A stretch of 64,000 bases of DNA, taken from positions 1,505-65,504 of the forward strand of contig DASYXS010000097.1 of assembly GCA_035934535.1 (NCBI GenBank), written 5' to 3'. Each line of letters opens with the position of its first letter. Position 1 is the first letter of the stretch. Source of the DNA: a bacterium. Lineage in GTDB: Bacteria; Sysuimicrobiota; Sysuimicrobiia; Sysuimicrobiales; Segetimicrobiaceae. Below the pieces are notes generated by a model. The model had not been told where the DNA came from and made no database searches. It was given only the letters and a program-made list of their open reading frames with translations. Positions 40,250-55,628 of the stretch are shown in pieces. The position numbers and the translations under genes are program-made.

Positions 40250-40253
<4 letters not shown>

Positions 40254-41116
40254 CCCGTTTCCACCTTCGCCTTCGCAATCGCGGCGATCTTGTCGATGAA
40301 CACCGTCTGGCTGTCGTCCTCTGGGACGTAGCCGAGCTTGTCGCGCGCGTTCGCGATGCTCCAGAACCGGTGGGTGTTCCCGCTGATCCCGTAGACGATC
40401 AGGAACGGCACCCCGTGCTCGTCGGCGATGTGCTCGGTCTCGACCATGCGGATCGCCTGCTGCACCTGGTCGCGCCGGGAGAGATAGGCGCCGAGCGCGC
40501 GGTGCATCGTCGCGAGGTCGCCCGGGCCGACGTGGTCGATGTCGGTCTCGCGCGGGCCGCCGATGCGCCACTGCACGACCTCGAGGTGCCGGTCGTCCAC
40601 CCGGCCGGTCGCGAAGACGAACCCCAGGAGCTCGTACGCGGCCTTGGCCCAGCCGTAGAAATTGTCGGACCGCGGCGGCATCTCCGGGGTCACCATCTCC
40701 ATGCGGTGCTTCCAGATCAGCCGCTCGTAGTAGTCCGCCGCGTGGTTGGAGCTCGCGACGACGACCCGGCGCACGCCCTCTTCCAGCGCCGTCCGGTAGA
40801 CGTTGTAGGCGAGGGCGATATTCTGGTGCTCGGCCCAGAACTTCGCATCGCTGGTGTTGTGCCACGCATCGGGGAGGCCGGCGGCGCGGACGAAACCGCA
40901 GTGGATCACGGCGTCGGCGCCACGGAAGTGCGCGCGGTACCCGTCGCGATCGGGTTTGGTCAGGTCACAAACGACGATCCCGGGAACGGATCTGCCGTCC
41001 CGCGTCGTCGACGAGACGTCGAGCGGCACAAGGTCCCACCGCTCCGCCAGCTCCGGCAGCATCCGCTGCGCGATGTAACCCGCGGCCCCGATCAACACCA
41101 CCCGGCGCTTCGCCAT
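40250..41116 (-). CDS. NAD-dependent epimerase/dehydratase family protein
   Basis: The start is moved to ATG 41114-41116, preceded by AAGGAGCTGTTCGC (MAKRRVVLIGAAGYIAQRMLPEL), giving a Rossmann GxxGxxG. The protein is 288 aa. Its stop overlaps the hyuA-like stop region convergently. Confidence 0.8.
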
Positions 41117-41313
41117 GCGAACAGCTCCTTCGTGAGAGGATGCATTGCGGTGGACGCGGCACATTCTTCTCGGCCGCGCGGGCCGAACTCCTCGGGTGCC
41201 CGTTCGCGATCATCCCGAGTGCGCGAGGATCGCGATTCTATGGTTGGCGCGGCGCGGAACAGGGAAAATAGACGTTGACCTCCAGTAGCAGCTCCACGAG
41301 GAGGTGGATGAGT

Positions 41314-41391
41314 ATGCCGCTGTGGCTCGTTGCGTTCTTGTCCGGCGTTGCGTTTACCGTCGTCGTCACTTCGGTGGCCGGCGGCAAGTAG
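41314..41391 (+). CDS. Mini-ORF 1: 25-aa hydrophobic peptide MPLWLVAFLSGVAFTVVVTSVAGGK (unannotated, below the ORF-track cutoff)
   Basis: The start context is GGAGGTG with 9 nt between GGAGG and the ATG. It has a single predicted TM helix and is a paralog of mini-ORF 2 (12 of 25 aligned positions identical). Third-codon positions are mostly G/C, as in bona fide genes here. Stop TAG at 41389-41391. Confidence 0.55.
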   Translation: MPLWLVAFLSGVAFTVVVTSVAGGK

Positions 41392-41426
41392 CACGTAGCG
41401 GGCAAACCGAATAGCACGCCAACGGT

Positions 41427-41455
41427 GAGGGGCCGGGGCGCATGCTCGGCCCCTC
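41427..41455 (+). other. GC-rich hairpin downstream of mini-ORF 1
   Basis: GAGGGGCCG-(11 nt)-CGGCCCCTC is a 9-bp stem. There is no U-tract. A second 6-bp hairpin TATGCG-(8 nt)-CGCATA follows at 41461-41480. Confidence 0.4.
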
Positions 41456-41534
41456 GCGCTTATGCGGACGTTTGCGCATAGGCGAGCGGGGAAGAACAGT
41501 TCTGAGCCCGCCACTCTATAGGAGGTGAGCCGCA

Positions 41535-41609
41535 ATGCCAGAATGGCTCGTTTGGGTGCTGGCCGGCATCGTCGTTACCGCCGCGGTCATTAACTCGGGC
41601 GGTAAGTAG
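41535..41609 (+). CDS. Mini-ORF 2: 24-aa hydrophobic peptide MPEWLVWVLAGIVVTAAVINSGGK (unannotated, below the ORF-track cutoff)
   Basis: The start context is GGAGGTG with exactly the same 9-nt spacing to the ATG as mini-ORF 1. It has a single TM helix and ends GGK-TAG like mini-ORF 1. A canonical terminator follows. Confidence 0.6.
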   Translation: MPEWLVWVLAGIVVTAAVINSGGK

Positions 41610-41632
41610 CCGGATATAACAGCCTGTACGGA

Positions 41633-41670
41633 GGGGAGCCAGGTCACAACGACTGGCTCCTCGTCTTTTT
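41633..41670 (+). terminator. Rho-independent terminator after mini-ORF 2
   Basis: GGAGCCAG-(10 nt)-CTGGCTCC is followed by TCGTCTTTTT. The U-tract is oriented for plus-strand transcripts, which supports transcription of the mini-ORF region. Confidence 0.7.
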
Positions 41671-41672
41671 GG

Positions 41673-42490
41673 CTACACGCCGCTGAACACGCTGAACCCG
41701 CCGTCGACGGGCACGACCACGCCGTTGACGAACCGGCTGCCCGGCCCGCACAGCCAGAGCACCGTCCCGATGAGGTCGTCCGGCTCGCCGAACCGGCCGG
41801 CCGGCGTGTGCTCGATGATCCGGCTGCCCCGCGGAGTGAGGCTTCCGTCCTCGTTGGTGAGCAGCCGCCGGTTCTGATCACCGATAAAGAAGCCCGGCGC
41901 GACGGCGTTGACCCTGAGGCCCTCGCCGTGCCTGCGCGCCAGGTCCACCGCGAGCCACCGCGTCAGATTCTCGATCGCGGCCTTGGCCGCCGAATACGCC
42001 GGCACGCGCGTCAGCACGCGCTGGGACGCCATCGACGAGATGTTCACGATGCTCCCCTGCCGCGCCGCGGCCATCGTGGGCCCGAAGACCTGGATCGGGA
42101 GCAGCGTGCCGGTGAGGTTCAGGTCGACCGCGGTGCGCCACGCCTCGACCGGCAGATCGAACACCGACCCGCCGTTTGCCAGCGTCGCCTGCGGCAGGTT
42201 GCCGCCGGCCGCGTTCACCAGAATATCGACGCGCCCCCACCGCCCGACGATCGCGTCCCGCGCGCGCGCGAGCGCCGCCGCGTCGAGCACGTCGGATGCG
42301 ACCGGCATCGCCTCGCCGCCGGACGCGGCGAGCTGCGCCGCCACCGCCTGCGCGCGCTCGAGCCGCCGCCCGAGGATGGCGATCCGCGCGCCGGCCGCCG
42401 CGAGCCCGCGCGCCATCGCGGACCCCAGCGCACCGCTCCCGCCGGTGACGACCGCGACCCGGCCGCGCAGATCGAAGAGCTCCGCGGGCT

Positions 42491-42494
<4 letters not shown>
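41673..42494 (-). CDS. SDR family oxidoreductase (mannonate / 5-keto-gluconate / KduD-like class)
   Basis: The start is ATG 42492-42494 (MKPAELFDLRGRVAVVTGGSGALGSAM), an ATGA overlap with the upstream stop. The catalytic motif is YSAAKAAIENLT. It is the last gene of the 9-gene operon. Confidence 0.88.
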
Positions 42495-44004
<1,510 letters not shown>

Positions 44005-44005
<1 letters not shown>

Positions 44006-45405
44006 CAGAAGTTACCCGGGTCCGGCCGCCCGGCGGCCTGTCCCATCCGGCGGGCGGGCGCCGGACCGAGCGGCGGGCGCAGCGTCCCGTCGTCGGTGAA
44101 GGACAGCGCCATGGGCGACGCGCCCTTCACGACGGCCGCGTGCGGCAGCAGGTCCGGCACGAGCGCCTCGGAAACCGCGACCTCGCGGACCGCGAGCGTG
44201 TTGCGAATGTAGACGAGGCGTGCTTCGCCGCCGTCGATCCGCGGCGCCGTGAGCACCGCCGCGTCCAGCACGTCGCGGTCGGTCGCAAGGACCATCGGCA
44301 GGCGGACGGAGTCGATGACGGTGGACGTGAGCGCGTTCATGTAGGTCGCGCCGAGATCCACCTTCCGCAGCACCCGCTGCGCGATCAGGTCCGCCATGCC
44401 GACCCCGTTGGCGTTGCCCTGCGTCTCGTCGGTCAGATCCAGCACGGCGATCTTCCGGATCACGGGGCCGCCGGACGCGAACGGCGTGGGGTAGCGGCCG
44501 GTGAGGTTCGGATCCATGCCGTCGCCGCTGATGTTCTTGCCGATCTCCTGCACGACCAGCACGTCGGCCGCGTTCACGGGCAGGCGGGCCATGAGGCCGC
44601 GGGCCCGGTCCAGCAGCGCGGGTTCGCGCGCGAGAAACTCCTCCGGAGCCACCACCGCCACCTGCACCGGCACGTCGTACGCGTCTTCGACCGTCGCGAC
44701 GCCGAAGAGCAGCGGCGCGCGCCGCGCGACGATCCCGTACCCCTCGACGAGCCGGCCGGCGAACCCGCCGAACCCGGGCGCGTGCATCGACTGCGCGCCG
44801 CGCTGCTTGCCGATGCCGATCACGGCCATTTTCACGAGGCCGCTTTCGATCGTGCCGCGGAACGCCGTGTGCGGCTTCACGCGGCCGACCGCCACCGCCG
44901 CGCCGGCCTCGAAGGCCTCCCGGTCCCAGAAGACCCCCGAGCCGTCGGCCAGCCGCCCAAGCTCGACGACGTCCATCGACGACACGATCGGCGCGCCGAC
45001 CGCCGCTTCGGTCACGCCCAGGCCGGCGAGCACCTCCCGCTGGCCCTCGGCGGTCGCGCCGCCGTGGCTGCCCATCGCCGGCACGACGAACGGCTCCGCA
45101 CCGCAGCGGCGCAGGGCGTCGACCACGGCCTTCGTGATGAGCGGAATCTCGGCGACGCCGCGGCTCCCGACGGCGACCGCGACCCGGCCGCGCGGAACGC
45201 GGCGGGCGATGTCGGGTACCTCGATCTGGCGGTGGATCTCCGCCTCGACGTCACAGCGGCCGGGTGTCGGGAATTCCTGGTGCACGCGGACGACTCGGGG
45301 CAGCGCGACCGTCGCCGGCGCCCGGATGCCTTCCACCGCGACCGACGCGCCCCGGCCGCCGCCCGTGCGGGCGCCGTCTCCCCGATCGTTGTCCGTGCCG
45401 ATCAC
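44005..45405 (-). CDS. LarA-family (DUF2088, nickel-pincer-nucleotide-dependent racemase/epimerase-like) protein
   Basis: About 466 aa. The start is tentatively GTG 45403-45405 (GTGA overlap with the iolB stop); a downstream GTG (VAVEGI...) is possible. It contains VVPAMGSHGGATAEGQ and GRVKPHTAFRGTIESGLVKMAVIGIGKQRGAQSMH. That is a His...PH...K...(16 residues)...H pattern reminiscent of LarA His108/His174/Lys184/His200, recalled from memory. larE, larB and larC lie about 6 kb upstream on the same strand. Confidence 0.55.
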
Positions 45406-46199
45406 CCCTTCCGGCTCACCCACGCGTGCGCGGGATCCTCGCTCGCCATCAGGCGCCGTCCCTCGCCGGCGAGCGCCCAGAGATAGTACAGCCGGTACCC
45501 GGGCGCGGCGACGACGGGATGGTAGCCCCACGGAATGAGCACGGTGTCTCCGTCCTCCACCACAAACGTGGAATCGACGTGCCGCTCCGGCGAGTAGAGG
45601 CGCTGGAACCCGAAGCCCTCTTTGGGTTTGACGCGGAAGTAGTAGACTTCCTGGAACACGGCTTCCCGCGGCGGGTCGTGACGGTCGTGCTTGTGGGGCG
45701 GGTAGCTCGACCAAGCTCCCGGCTCGTTGAACGTCTCCCCGGCCACGAGGCGCTGCGCGTGCTTGGACTCGTCGAGGATCGTGTGCACGGTCCGGCGCGA
45801 TGGGCCTTCGCCGCGGACCGCGACCGTGACGTCGGGGGGCCGGATCACGTACGCCTCACCGCCGGCCGGCGCCGGCGCCCGCAGCGCGGCGATCTCCGCC
45901 GGTCCGGCCGCGGAGATGCGATAGGCAATCCCGGACGGCACGTACACCGAGGTCGGGACTCCGTCGAAAACGTCGCTGCGTCCGCCGAGATTGCCCCAGG
46001 CGTCCATACCCGCGACGGCGATCGAGCACGTGCCGCCGAGAATCACGAGCAGCGACTCCCGCCCCGGCGAGACGGCGTCCATCGGCAGCCCGGGCTGCGG
46101 GTGGAGGATCGCGAGCTCGAGGCCGTCCGAGTCAGAGTTCTTGGGGTTCACGATCTCCGAGACGCCGTCTCCGGCGCTGCCCTTGAAGAACACCTTCAT
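45402..46199 (-). CDS. iolB: 5-deoxy-glucuronate isomerase (IolB family cupin)
   Basis: The start is ATG 46197-46199, preceded by GGAGGTGTCGCG (MKVFFKGSAGDG). Strong IolB blocks are AWSSYPPHKHD, FQEVYYFRVKPKEGFGFQRLY, IPWGYHPVVAAPGYRLYYLWALAGE and DPAHAWV. Confidence 0.85.
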   Translation of the reverse strand: MKVFFKGSAGDGVSEIVNPKNSDSDGLELAILHPQPGLPMDAVSPGRESLLVILGGTCSIAVAGMDAWGNLGGRSDVFDGVPTSVYVPSGIAYRISAAGPAEIAALRAPAPAGGEAYVIRPPDVTVAVRGEGPSRRTVHTILDESKHAQRLVAGETFNEPGAWSSYPPHKHDRHDPPREAVFQEVYYFRVKPKEGFGFQRLYSPERHVDSTFVVEDGDTVLIPWGYHPVVAAPGYRLYYLWALAGEGRRLMASEDPAHAWVSRKG

Positions 46200-46249
46200 C
46201 GCGACACCTCCGATGCATGCCTGCTGCTCCGCGGGCCCGCTGCCAGGGG

Positions 46250-47503
46250 TCAGAGGCGATCTTTGAGCGAGACCGAGACCGCGGGATCGGCCCAGCGGGT
46301 GTTGGGGATCAGCGGATACCAGTCCGGCCGCCCGGGATCCCGGTCGTAGGCGTAGCCGCCGAGCCGCCGGTACAGGTCGGCGTAGCGGCCGACTTTGTCG
46401 CGGTCGAGCCGGACCCCGAGCCCCGGTGCCGTGGGCACCGCGACGCGCCCGTTGCGGTAGGCGAGCCTGCCCCCTTCGATCACGTCGTCGGCGAGATGGT
46501 GGTAGTGGGCGTCGGCCGCGAACGTGAGGTTCGGGATCGCGGCGCCGAGGTGCAGCATCGTCGCGAGCTGGATGCCCAGCTCGCCCGACGAATGGACGGC
46601 CACGCCGAGCTGGAACGTCTCGCAGACCGCGGCGGCCTTGACGCACGCGCGGATGCCGCCCCAGAACGTCGTGTCGAGCAGCACCACGTCCACGGCCGGC
46701 CGGAGCACGTTGGCGGCCAGCTCCTCGAAGTTGATCACGACCGTGTTGGTCGCGAGCGGCACGCGCACGCGCTCCCTGAGGCGCCGCAGACCCTCGAGCC
46801 CCCAAGTGGGATCCTCGAGGTAGTCGTTCCGGAGGTCCTCGATGGCCCGGCCGAACCGGATGCCCTCTTCCACGCTCAGCACCGCGTTCGGGTCGTAGCG
46901 CAGCGCGTCGCCCGGAAAGGCCTGCGCGAGGGCGCGGTAGCACTCGAGCTCGTAGTCCGGCGGGAAGACCCCGCCCTTCAGCTTGTGGGTGCGGAAGCCG
47001 TGCGCGCCGCGCAGCGCCCGCGCGTGCGCGACGAGCTGCTCGACCGTCCGGACCTCGCCCGCCCCCGTCGCCGGGTCGGCGTAGCGGAAGAACAGGTAAC
47101 TCGCGAACGGCACCTCCTCGCGCAGCGCGCCCCCGAGCAGATCGTAGACGGGCACCCCAAGCGCCTGTCCGACGATGTCGAGGCAGGCGAACTCGATCGC
47201 GGCGTGCAGCTGCGTGCGGTTGTTGTAGAGGCTCGCGGTGGGGTTGCAGATCTTGAAGCGCAGCGCCTCGAGATCGAAGGCGTCGTGCCCGACCACGTAG
47301 GACTTGAGGCCGGCGAGCGCGGCTTCGGCGGCCTCGCCGCCTCCGCCCATCTCCCCCAGCCCGACGAGCCCGTCCGCCGTCTCGAGCTCCACGATCGTGC
47401 GCACGAACCGTCCCCAGTGCGCGCCGTTGCTGTGCCGGAGCGGTGCTTGGAGCGGCACCGTCACCGTGGTCGCGCGGAGGTCCGCGATCGGAAGGCGCTT
47501 CAC
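46250..47503 (-). CDS. Enolase-superfamily acid-sugar dehydratase (glucarate dehydratase-like)
   Basis: The start is GTG 47501-47503 ([14 protein letters not shown]), a GTGA overlap with the permease stop. The rest of the track ORF to 48292 is spurious. Blocks are [32 protein letters not shown] and LATNTVV. Confidence 0.8.
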
Positions 47504-48342
47504 CGGCGCACGCGGATGACCATGTTCACCGGGTTGACGAACCGCAGCGCCGCGATGAGCAGGATGAGGCCGGTGACCATGTACACGACCGCCATCGCGT
47601 CGATCGCTTGAGCGGGCCGGATGCCCGCCGCGAACGCGGTGTAATAGAGCGCGACGACGAGCGTCTGGCTCTTCGCCCCCGACACGAGGAACGTCAGCTC
47701 GAACAGCGCGATCGCCCGCACAAGGATGAGGAGCCCCGCCGCGAGCACGCCGGGCAGGACGATCGGCAGCAGGACGCGCGCGAACATCCGAAGCGGCGGC
47801 GCGCCGAGCGTCCGCGCCGCGCGTTCCAGGTTCGGATCGATCTGCTCGAAGAACGGCGTCATGATCAGCACGACAAACGGCATCGCCGGGACGATGTTCG
47901 CCACGATGACGCCGGCGAGTTTGCCGCCGAGCCGGAGCTTGTAGAGCATCGCGGCGAGCGGGATGCCGTAGGTGATCGGCGGCACCAGCATCGGGAGCAC
48001 GAGGAGCATCAGGAGCGCCGCGCGCCCGGGAAAGGCGCGCCGGGCCAGCATGTACGCCGCCGGCACGCCGAGGGCGAGGCTGATCAGCGTCACGGTCAGC
48101 CCGACGACGATCGTGACCCCGAGTAGGTAGCCGAGATCGAATTCGGCGAGCGCGAACCGGTACCACTTCGTGGTGTACGCGTCGGGCAGCCACCCGCCGA
48201 ACCATGTCGATGCGATCGAATTCAGGAACGCCGACAGGAAGATGCCGGCCACCAGCAGCGCGAACAGCCCGACGATCGCGTAGACCCACCACGCCGGGCC
48301 CTCGCCCGTCGCCGGGCGGCCTCCTGCGATCGCCCGGCTCAT
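47500..48342 (-). CDS. ABC importer permease (PotC/CysW-like, binding-protein-dependent family)
   Basis: The start is ATG 48340-48342 ([30 protein letters not shown]), an ATGA overlap. The EAA loop is [27 protein letters not shown]. Confidence 0.88.
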
Positions 48343-54661: not shown

Positions 54662-55628
54662 CCCCTCCGCGTCCTTCGACCCGTCCTTCGACCGGCGGCC
54701 GCACTACGCCTCCGTGGCCACCCGCGAGCCGCACGCCCGCGAGGGTGAGGAGCGCCCCCGCCGCCTGCACGGGACTCAGCGACTCGCCGAGGACTGCGGC
54801 GGCGATTACCACCGCGGAGACCGGCTCGAGGTACACGTACACCATCGTCTGCCGCTGTCCGAACCGGTGCAGCGACCGGCCCCAGAGCGCCATCGCCACG
54901 ACCATCCCAGCGGTGCCGCCGTAGACGAGCCCGCCCCACGCCGGCCACGACACCGCGCCCCACGCGTAATGGGCCACGTCCGGCAGCGCAAGCGGCGCGA
55001 AAAGGAACATCGCGATCCCCATCGCCCACCCGGTCGCCTGCCACGTCCCGGCCGCCGCCACGACGGGGCTCACCGCGAAGCTGTACCAGCTCCACGCGGC
55101 GGCCGCGCCGAGCGCGAGCACATCGCCGATCAACCGCGACGCGCCGAGCCCGCCCGCCGCTCCCCAGACTAAGAACGCCACGCCCGCGATGCCGGCCGCG
55201 AGTCCAATCCACCGGCGGCTGTCCAGGGTCTCGCCGCCGCGCACGGCCAGCCACGCTGCGGTTAGGATCGGGGACGCCGCAAGCAAGATCGCGCTTTGTC
55301 CGGCCGTCGTCCAGCGGAGGCTGCCCACGAGCAGGATCTGAAACGCCGCCTGGGCGATCCCCGCGACCAAGACGGCCCACCGGAGTCCGCGCGGCACCGC
55401 TCGGCGCCGCGGCAACCAGATCGCCGCCAGCACGGCAGTGGCCAGGGCGAGGCGCAGAAACGTGAAGTCGACGACCGGGATCTCGCGCAGCGCAAGCCGT
55501 GCGCCGGGGTAAATGCCACCCCACAGCACCACCGCCAGCAGCGGTTCGACGAGAATCCACCCGCCCGCGCGGCGGCCCGCCGCTCCGGGCACGGCCGGGG
55601 CCCCGCCGGCGGCCGAAGCCCCGCTCAT
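54633..55628 (-). CDS. DMT-superfamily transporter (EamA family)
   Basis: The start is ATG 55626-55628, an ATGA overlap with the SDR stop. It has ten hydrophobic spans arranged as two EamA repeats. It overlaps the larE start by 29 nt. Confidence 0.85.
   Translation of the reverse strand: MSGASAAGGAPAVPGAAGRRAGGWILVEPLLAVVLWGGIYPGARLALREIPVVDFTFLRLALATAVLAAIWLPRRRAVPRGLRWAVLVAGIAQAAFQILLVGSLRWTTAGQSAILLAASPILTAAWLAVRGGETLDSRRWIGLAAGIAGVAFLVWGAAGGLGASRLIGDVLALGAAAAWSWYSFAVSPVVAAAGTWQATGWAMGIAMFLFAPLALPDVAHYAWGAVSWPAWGGLVYGGTAGMVVAMALWGRSLHRFGQRQTMVYVYLEPVSAVVIAAAVLGESLSPVQAAGALLTLAGVRLAGGHGGVVRPPVEGRVEGRGGDARREHARR

Follow-up and report, generated by a model that had tools for sequence, protein, structure and literature searches.

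Two tandem 24- to 25-codon genes for predicted single-helix membrane peptides in a narrow clade of uncultured high-GC soil bacteria

Two short genes, neither of them annotated, lie in tandem on the plus strand of a 64,000-nucleotide (nt) stretch of contig DASYXS010000097.1 (assembly GCA_035934535.1, positions 1,505 to 65,504), which derives from a bacterium of the Segetimicrobiaceae and is referred to below, at its full length, as the window. Judged by the pattern of substitution among relatives, these open reading frames (ORFs), termed ORF1 and ORF2, are protein-coding genes under purifying selection. The favoured reading, to which a probability of roughly 0.5 is given, is that their products form a family of small membrane proteins that is new and confined to one lineage, and which would work as a stress-induced modulator pair rather than as a classical toxin under antisense control.

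Tandem mini-genes and the evidence for coding

Both genes occupy the gap between an epimerase-family gene (40250-41116, minus strand) and an SDR gene (41673-42494, minus strand). The G+C content of the window is 71.5%, and an initial annotation made from the sequence had described this gap as the AT-richer one; 41251-41650 is in fact the 400-nt stretch with the lowest G+C of the whole window (0.618 versus 0.715). The two mini-ORFs proposed in that annotation were recovered at the same coordinates, with 221 bp from the start of ORF1 to the start of ORF2:

41314..41391 (+): ORF1, 25 amino acids (aa), MPLWLVAFLSGVAFTVVVTSVAGGK; ATG at 41314, TAG at 41389-41391, stop included
41535..41609 (+): ORF2, 24 aa, MPEWLVWVLAGIVVTAAVINSGGK; ATG at 41535, TAG at 41607-41609, stop included
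41300..41306 (+): ribosome-binding site (RBS) of ORF1, GGAGGTG, 7 nt 5' of the ATG; invariant in 22/22 units
41521..41527 (+): RBS of ORF2, GGAGGTG, 7 nt 5' of the ATG

The arrangement GGAGGTG-N7-ATG occurs only twice in the 64 kb, at ORF1 and at ORF2, against an expectation of 0.10, and the spacing of 9 nt between GGAGG and ATG that had been reported for both genes was confirmed. An in-frame TGA lies two codons 5' of the ORF2 methionine. In the relative L001, an in-frame stop is found two codons upstream of the ORF1 methionine; therefore, the 38-aa ORF that begins with TTG is not the gene. When the two peptides are aligned, there are 12 identities, the number on which the claim of paralogy had been based, and the alignment score of 56 is equalled by none of 20,000 shuffles (mean -2, standard deviation 8). 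The window holds no further ORF of the type MP.W...GGK.

Relatives of the locus were gathered in several ways. A genome scan with the epimerase yielded L001, whose epimerase has 86% protein identity. A metagenome scan with a strict, degenerate DNA pattern for MPxWLV...GGK-stop returned 23 loci, four of which (L087, L090, L091, and L100) are real, the other 19 being chance matches. Loci L110 to L120 were added through protein-database searches with concatenated or extended alignments, together with contig look-ups. Among viral contigs, the strict DNA pattern had no matches and a loose DNA pattern had chance matches only. In all, both ORFs, always in tandem, are present at 13 further loci, on related soil metagenome contigs of ~66-72% GC and in one metagenome-assembled genome (MAG).

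Comparison of these loci indicates selection at the level of translation. Among 11 distinct orthologous sequences of ORF1, the variable sites are distributed 4/4/15 over the three codon positions, and the pooled ratio of nonsynonymous to synonymous differences (pN/pS) is 0.18; for ORF2, with 7 distinct orthologous sequences, the corresponding values are 7/4/18 and 0.22. Combined, the variable sites fall 11/8/33, mostly at the third position. With the window sequence as reference, the two ORFs have the same pS and pN/pS as the epimerase and SDR genes on either side (pN/pS 0.15-0.24). Furthermore, the codon for Ser10 of ORF1 is TCC or TCT at some loci and AGC at others, with ACC (Thr), which is found at some loci, as a likely intermediate between the two codon types, and in some copies from L117 and L119 GTG has taken the place of ATG as start codon without loss of the peptide. 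The excess of third-position changes and a pN/pS of ~0.2, as in the neighboring enzyme genes, thus argue that these are real protein-coding genes. The initial annotation had named frame conservation in syntenic relatives as the point on which its proposal could fail; both frames are kept there with an excess of synonymous change, and the proposal emerges strongly from the comparison.

Unit structure and transcription signals

Each ORF is part of a larger repeated unit, whose features are as follows:

41241..41672 (+): the whole autonomous cassette, two head-to-tail units of ~220 bp (unit 1, ~41241-41467; unit 2, ~41468-41672)
41243..41267 (+): promoter-like motif of unit 1, GTTGGC-N13-GGGAAA, a match to the SigB-type consensus
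41470..41494 (+): promoter-like motif of unit 2, GTTTGC-N13-GGGAAG, a match to the SigB-type consensus
41279..41287 (+): ACCTCCAGT, complementary to the RBS of ORF1 and a possible anti-Shine-Dalgarno (anti-SD) element; invariant in 9 close sequences
41425..41457 (+): GC-rich hairpin after ORF1, with a 9-bp core at 41427-41435/41447-41455; aligns with the terminator after ORF2
41633..41670 (+): intrinsic terminator of unit 2, with a bulged 13+2-bp stem at 41633-41662 and TTTTT at 41666-41670

The alignment of unit 1 with unit 2 spans all of their ~220 bp and scores 125.5, compared with 58.7 +/- 7.2 for shuffles, and a 22-unit profile has two head-to-tail matches in the window, one at 41241-41473 and the other at 41468-41696. 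The layout common to units 1 and 2 is an upstream motif, RBS, ORF, stop context, a hairpin of the form AACGG.GAGGGGCC...GGC.CCTCG, and a T-run. On the evidence of these alignments, the duplication extends beyond the ORF and covers the whole ~220-bp unit, from the promoter-like motif through the RBS and ORF to the terminator.

A block of the form (A)CG(T/G)TTG...GGGAA...CTGA(A/G)CC lies about 35-70 nt 5' of the start codon in 22/22 units. Within it, the motif GTT(T/G)NN-N12-13-GGGAA is found at the same position in 17 of the 22, and in the window GTT(T/G)NN-N12-13-GGGAA(A/C/G) occurs twice, both times at the units, where 0.44 occurrences would be expected. The consensus reported for Bacillus SigB and for nine Streptomyces SigB homologues is GTTTAA-N12-14-GGG(A/T)A(A/T), in which the GGG and the A at position 5 are invariant (PMC8346170, PMC9847131). 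The putative promoters of both window units match this SigB-type (group 3 sigma) consensus. A sigma-70 scanner found no promoter at the locus, and a Pfam scan of 30 window ORFs showed neither a sigma nor an anti-sigma gene.

Downstream of the ORFs, the hairpins assigned in the initial annotation were located as described, a 9-bp GC stem after ORF1 and a terminator with its U-tract on the plus strand after ORF2, although the stem of the latter is bulged, which is why a simple terminator scanner did not call it. In a nine-sequence alignment, 98% of cells in the unit 2 terminator are paired and 4 pairs show compensatory changes; the corresponding values for the hairpin after ORF1 are 95% and one compensatory pair. 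A clear T-tract follows the hairpin in unit 2 only. The hairpin after ORF1 has just a short, T-poor tail and is probably a weak or leaky terminator, so that read-through into unit 2 is possible. The spacer between this hairpin and the unit 2 motif varies in length, with indels between loci, in keeping with separate transcription of the two units. On the minus strand, A·C mismatches would stand in place of the G·U pairs of both hairpins (at three positions in the unit 2 terminator), and in 17/17 sliding windows it is the plus strand that has the lower consensus folding energy. Thus, the covariation of the terminator, the strand-specific G·U pairs, and the folding energies point to the plus strand as the one that is transcribed and structured.

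Given hairpins that are conserved and covary, it could be postulated that the RNA itself is the functional product, as a structured small RNA (sRNA) or a cis-regulator of the epimerase or sugar-acid genes, with ORFs that are incidental or are translated for regulatory purposes. The position of the cassette between two catabolic gene groups would suit such a role, as would a match to the Bradyrhizobiaceae sRNA BjrC68 in Rfam (41385-41462, plus strand), which is below threshold (25 bits versus a gathering score of 39; E 5e-4 in a 1-kb search). However, constraint on RNA does not explain the third-position pattern, the pN/pS of ~0.2, the conserved starts, stops, and RBSs, or the codon switches that preserve the peptide, and replacement of one or both flanking genes has left the cassette in place. 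In addition, the covarying hairpins are ordinary stems of the terminator type, and the BjrC68 match covers one of them, the GC hairpin after ORF1, and is most likely a likeness among terminator-like hairpins. An RNA product is therefore very improbable.

A further stem-loop can be formed by the 3' half of ORF2 (41563-41613, plus strand), with CCGGC/GCCGG and TTACCGCC/GGCGGTAA as its arms and an invariant GCCGGA just past the stop. This stem and the conserved TAGCCGGA after the stop were considered as a structural element and dropped, as they are invariant in the close set only and are not kept in L117 and L119. A leader peptide or attenuator for a neighboring gene was likewise rejected, both neighbors being on the opposite strand and the cassette having its own terminator.

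The transcribed strand also bears on a second alternative, a type I toxin-antitoxin array like Ibs/Sib, Ldr/Rdl, or Zor/Orz, in which translation of peptides that depolarize the membrane would be repressed by an antisense sRNA encoded in cis or in trans. In the units, no signal for an antisense or overlapping sRNA was found in minus-strand promoters, folding, or G·U pairs. Three types of minus-strand promoter (sigma-70-like, extended -10, and SigB-like) were sought in the 22 units and none is conserved; one candidate, TGCTAT 3' of ORF1, was rejected because the extended -10 pattern (TGnTAnnnT) is present in only 2/22 units. A cis-antisense RNA might still arise from a promoter of an unrecognized type. 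As described above, it is the plus strand that folds better in every window and that the G·U pairs fit. The RBS-complementary ACCTCCAGT 5' of ORF1 would be welcome to a type I reading, since in the nine close sequences it is invariant while adjoining positions vary. Nevertheless, the pairing never varies in these relatives and so carries no covariation information, and the element is gone in L117 and L120 and lies outside the minimum-energy fold. Folding z-scores for the RBS region are ~0, with no convincing occlusion of the RBS, and the predicted 5' untranslated region is short, about 35 nt. A hairpin of ACCTCC with GGAGGT that occludes the ORF1 RBS has accordingly been downgraded, and the role of ACCTCCAGT as an anti-SD is doubtful.

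Distribution and autonomy of the cassette

An ORF1-type and an ORF2-type gene are found in tandem at every locus where the contig is long enough. Both ORFs lie at the syntenic site in L001, L087, L090, L100, L110-L112, L114, L115, and L120, and at rearranged sites in L091 and L119. In L117 (5985-6643) and L118 (1892-2550), which represent a more distant relative with 78.7% nucleotide identity across the flanks, the same epimerase-SDR gap holds three tandem units, with the peptides MPLWAIWFLGGVVFTALVVNAGGK and MPVWVAWALLGAAVTAIIIANSGGK, which both start with GTG, and MPAWVAWWALGLLAAAVVLHNAGGK. Copy number therefore changes through duplication of whole units. The 22-unit profile detects no extra copies in the window or in the unrelated loci gathered.

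The two rearranged loci are informative about the limits of the element. In L119 (122-573), the epimerase is kept on the left, and the right flank consists of a membrane protein of ~211-214 aa and an EamA transporter; in L091 (1750-2204), an ABC permease is on the left, and the same membrane protein and EamA as in L119 are on the right. Homology of both to the window starts at ~41243 and ends at ~41670. Since the cassette is intact despite altered flanks, it is self-contained and outlasts rearrangement to its left or right, and on this comparison the ~430-bp cassette is autonomous. The window has an EamA homologue 13 kb from the cassette (54723-55585) and no homologue of the ~211-214-aa membrane protein.

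As far as the sequences surveyed show, the family is restricted to a narrow clade of related soil bacteria that are uncultured and of high GC. Epimerase relatives at a greater distance (L002-L080) have no mini-ORFs, and the closest twelve of these (L002-L012 and L030) are without synteny. About 15 protein clusters of the family were found among 5.8 billion sequences. Judged by the flanking epimerase, the closest named relatives are MAGs labelled Methylomirabilota/Rokubacteria or simply "bacterium"; they are not actinomycetes. A narrow phylogenetic distribution, a copy number that differs between lineages (2 or 3), and a cassette left intact where one or both flanks are rearranged all agree with a type I toxin array.

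Proteins of <30 aa are systematically missed or mis-called, and most entries for ORF1 in public protein sets are a "hypothetical protein" whose N-terminus is spuriously extended by 13-49 residues. Family members P0001-P0006, P0011, P0014, and P0015 are recorded there as "hypothetical proteins" of 38-74 aa without a Pfam domain. The extensions are produced by translation through the promoter and RBS region, and the "EEV" seen in them is GAGGAGGTG. A few entries are correctly 24-25 aa, and ORF2 is present solely as a few unnamed entries of 24 aa; no family entry in these sets has an informative name.

Beyond the cassette, a minus-strand cluster (41673-48292; 6538-12219 in L110) resembles a uronate/sugar-acid pathway. 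It contains the SDR gene and genes for the tagaturonate epimerase UxaE, KduI, and an enolase-superfamily dehydratase, followed by an ABC permease; a protein with a faint LarA-N-like match was also observed in L110. In neither L119 nor L091 does this cluster adjoin the cassette. Among the window ORFs, the 30 that were scanned against Pfam proved to be ordinary genes of metabolism and transport, including Opp/Dpp- and Liv-type ABC systems, dehydrogenases, hydantoinase B, a histidine kinase, and an HlyD-type protein, with no mobile-element genes seen among them. The window contains no tRNA gene and no Rfam family at the gathering score.

Predicted membrane peptides and comparison with known systems

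The 19 distinct peptides of the family conform to M-P-x-W-(L/V/A/F)-(V/I/A)-x-x-(L/A)-x-G...(G/A)-G-K-stop and have ~20 consecutive hydrophobic or small residues, with a grand average of hydropathy (GRAVY) of 1.0-1.6. Each carries one or two charged residues: the C-terminal Lys, Glu3 in most copies of the ORF2 type, and one His in a single copy. All end in (S/A/G)-G-G-K, without an aromatic or charged cluster. The description of the products as hydrophobic peptides of a single helix with a C-terminal Lys thus holds throughout the family, in which each peptide is predicted to be essentially one transmembrane helix. Because of the single C-terminal Lys, the positive-inside rule would place the N-terminus outside and the C-terminus inside. 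Identity between the ORF1 and ORF2 types is ~50%, whereas within a type it is 60-80% even at the most distant loci. This within-type conservation indicates that the types are maintained separately and suggests that their roles are non-redundant. Both types also have a conserved small-residue face, (S/A)-G-x-x-x-T. Such faces are used for helix-helix packing.

The initial annotation had recognized no known family, and the searches bear this out: the two peptides gave nothing significant against Pfam, NCBIfam, PADLOC, PHROGs, PDB sequences, Rfam, or plasmids (tblastn). PEP-CTERM, CydX-like, and KdpF-like identities, which were considered as candidates, have no supporting NCBIfam match. The peptides share with the photosystem II protein PsbJ an N-terminal motif, P-L-W-(L/I)-V-A-x-x-(A/S)-G. 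However, the scores are far below the family cut-offs (PF01788, 15.9 bits versus 30; NF002722, 17.1-20.8 bits versus 57), only the N-terminal 18-24 residues align, and PDB chains of PsbJ match at E 0.07-0.5. PsbJ itself is 38-42 aa with a conserved C-terminal part, which the peptides lack, and the 30 scanned ORFs of the window include no gene for photosynthesis. With no supporting context, a PsbJ identity was rejected, and the resemblance is most likely due to chance or to convergence between transmembrane helices.

Taken together, these results have led to a model for how the pair might act. Each unit would be transcribed separately, as an mRNA of ~190 nt, from a promoter of the SigB/general-stress type, and efficient translation of each mRNA would yield a peptide consisting of little more than one transmembrane helix. 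This helix would insert with its N-terminus out, with Pro2 and Trp4 at the outer interface, and its C-terminus, with the single Lys, in. Peptides of the ORF1 and ORF2 types would then most likely pack with each other or with a larger protein of the membrane, and the pair would act as membrane modulators induced by stress. The proposal that they pack and act as a pair follows from the co-occurrence of two diverged, individually conserved types and from the small-residue face.

Several points weigh against this model. The promoter is putative, being assigned from a consensus match only, and 5/22 units match the SigB-type motif only loosely. The idea of a hetero-oligomer is drawn from co-occurrence together with a small-xxx-small-like motif. 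No conserved partner gene adjoins the cassette and its flanks vary between loci, so that a specific partner cannot be named. Finally, tandem whole-unit duplication of intergenic hydrophobic mini-ORFs is statistically associated with type I toxins (PMC2887945).

The last point leads back to the type I alternative. The candidate criteria of Fozo et al. (2010) include small size (<70 aa), a transmembrane helix, and tandem repeats with similarity that extends past the ORF (PMC2887945). Tandem repetition within one intergenic region uncovered new toxin families in that work and is a frequent, though not universal, feature of type I systems (PMC2887945). The peptides here are below 70 aa, and indeed below 30 aa, with one predicted hydrophobic helix and a basic residue at its end, and it is the whole unit that is tandemly repeated in one intergenic region, which was a search criterion of that study. 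However, the C-terminus is only GGK, without the cluster of polar, charged, or bulky aromatic residues that is usual in such toxins, and there is no homology to a described toxin family: even at E <= 10, Pfam, NCBIfam, and PADLOC gave no match to Ldr/Fst, Ibs, Hok, TisB, or other toxin families, apart from noise from PsbJ and FixP_N. Furthermore, the genes are not near-identical copies but two diverged paralogue types, each conserved with a pN/pS like that of housekeeping enzymes. On this evidence, a type I array is an unlikely explanation.

The initial annotation had offered a type I toxin locus or a small membrane regulator as the nature of the pair. What stands is that these are genuine paralogous genes, each with its own RBS and terminator. 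The toxin label is not supported, as the resemblance is generic and the locus shows no antisense RNA signal, polar C-terminus, RBS occlusion, or toxin-family match; the regulator alternative is at least as likely. Thus, a role as membrane peptides is likely from the properties of the sequences, and the label of toxin is unproven.

A third alternative arises from the leaderless 24-25-aa peptides being arrayed in tandem, with the two diverged types always together. They might be exported as a multi-peptide bacteriocin, or as surfactants like the phenol-soluble modulins (PSMs), and act on other cells or on surfaces; the glycine and small-residue face of the helix could mediate pairing of the peptides. 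Such a fate is improbable, as the peptides are uniformly hydrophobic, with the few charges noted above, and are neither amphipathic nor cationic. In addition, no exporter, immunity, or modification gene is conserved beside the cassette, whose flanks differ, and each unit has its own promoter-like motif and hairpin, rather than all forming one operon.

A bolder hypothesis, which is tentative and on present evidence doubtful, combines elements of these readings. The pair would be a hitherto unknown membrane-active two-peptide system of an uncultured Methylomirabilota/Rokubacteria-like soil lineage. In one version, this would be the first type I toxin-like array described in that lineage, its antitoxin being unconventional or missing altogether; in the other, a heteromeric mini-pore or modulator that a general-stress sigma factor turns on. 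The system would grow by unit duplication and survive rearrangement as a selfish or addictive unit.

Comparative genomics alone has here revealed translation-level selection on two genes of 24-25 codons in an uncultured lineage and has delimited a complete gene unit, from the promoter-like motif through the terminator. The motif MPxW...GGK preceded by GGAGGTG is offered as a signature for annotation, and a SigB-type promoter as a regulatory prediction. If the peptides prove to be toxic or pore-forming, type I-like systems would be extended to a new phylum and a new class of sequences. If not, the pair would join the small membrane proteins linked to stress, whose number is growing.

Compared with Ibs/Sib, Ldr/Rdl, and Zor/Orz, the likeness lies in unannotated ORFs of <30-35 aa for one hydrophobic helix, in head-to-tail duplication of whole units with a terminator for each, and in a narrow taxonomic range. 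The locus described here differs in having no antisense signal and no polar or aromatic C-terminal cluster. Moreover, its leader is short and apparently unstructured, leaving a strong RBS exposed, and its paralogues are diverged, are individually conserved, and have no sequence similarity to the toxin families.

Leaderless two- and multi-peptide bacteriocins and the PSM-alpha operon consist of complementary paralogous peptides of 20-30 aa, without a leader, in tandem arrays. In this respect, they resemble the present pair. However, those peptides are amphipathic, charged, co-transcribed, and linked to exporter or immunity genes, whereas the peptides here are uniformly hydrophobic and have separate promoter and terminator signals.

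Small single-pass membrane proteins such as AcrZ, MgtS, KdpF, CydX, and the stress-induced ones of the YohP/YnhF type are, like the peptides here, <50 aa and essentially one transmembrane helix, with a strong RBS, and they too have been missed by annotation. In Escherichia coli, small membrane proteins are often regulated by stress and act by binding larger membrane proteins. Such bacterial proteins are the subject of a review (PMC10730256). AcrZ, MgtS, KdpF, CydX, and their like are usually single copy, with several encoded in the operon of their partner, and have no sequence similarity to the present peptides, which are instead encoded by two or three stand-alone paralogous units in tandem with no conserved neighbor. 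The family is thus new, being absent from Pfam and NCBIfam, and is of a kind already known, that of small single-pass membrane mini-proteins, which is here arranged in tandem.

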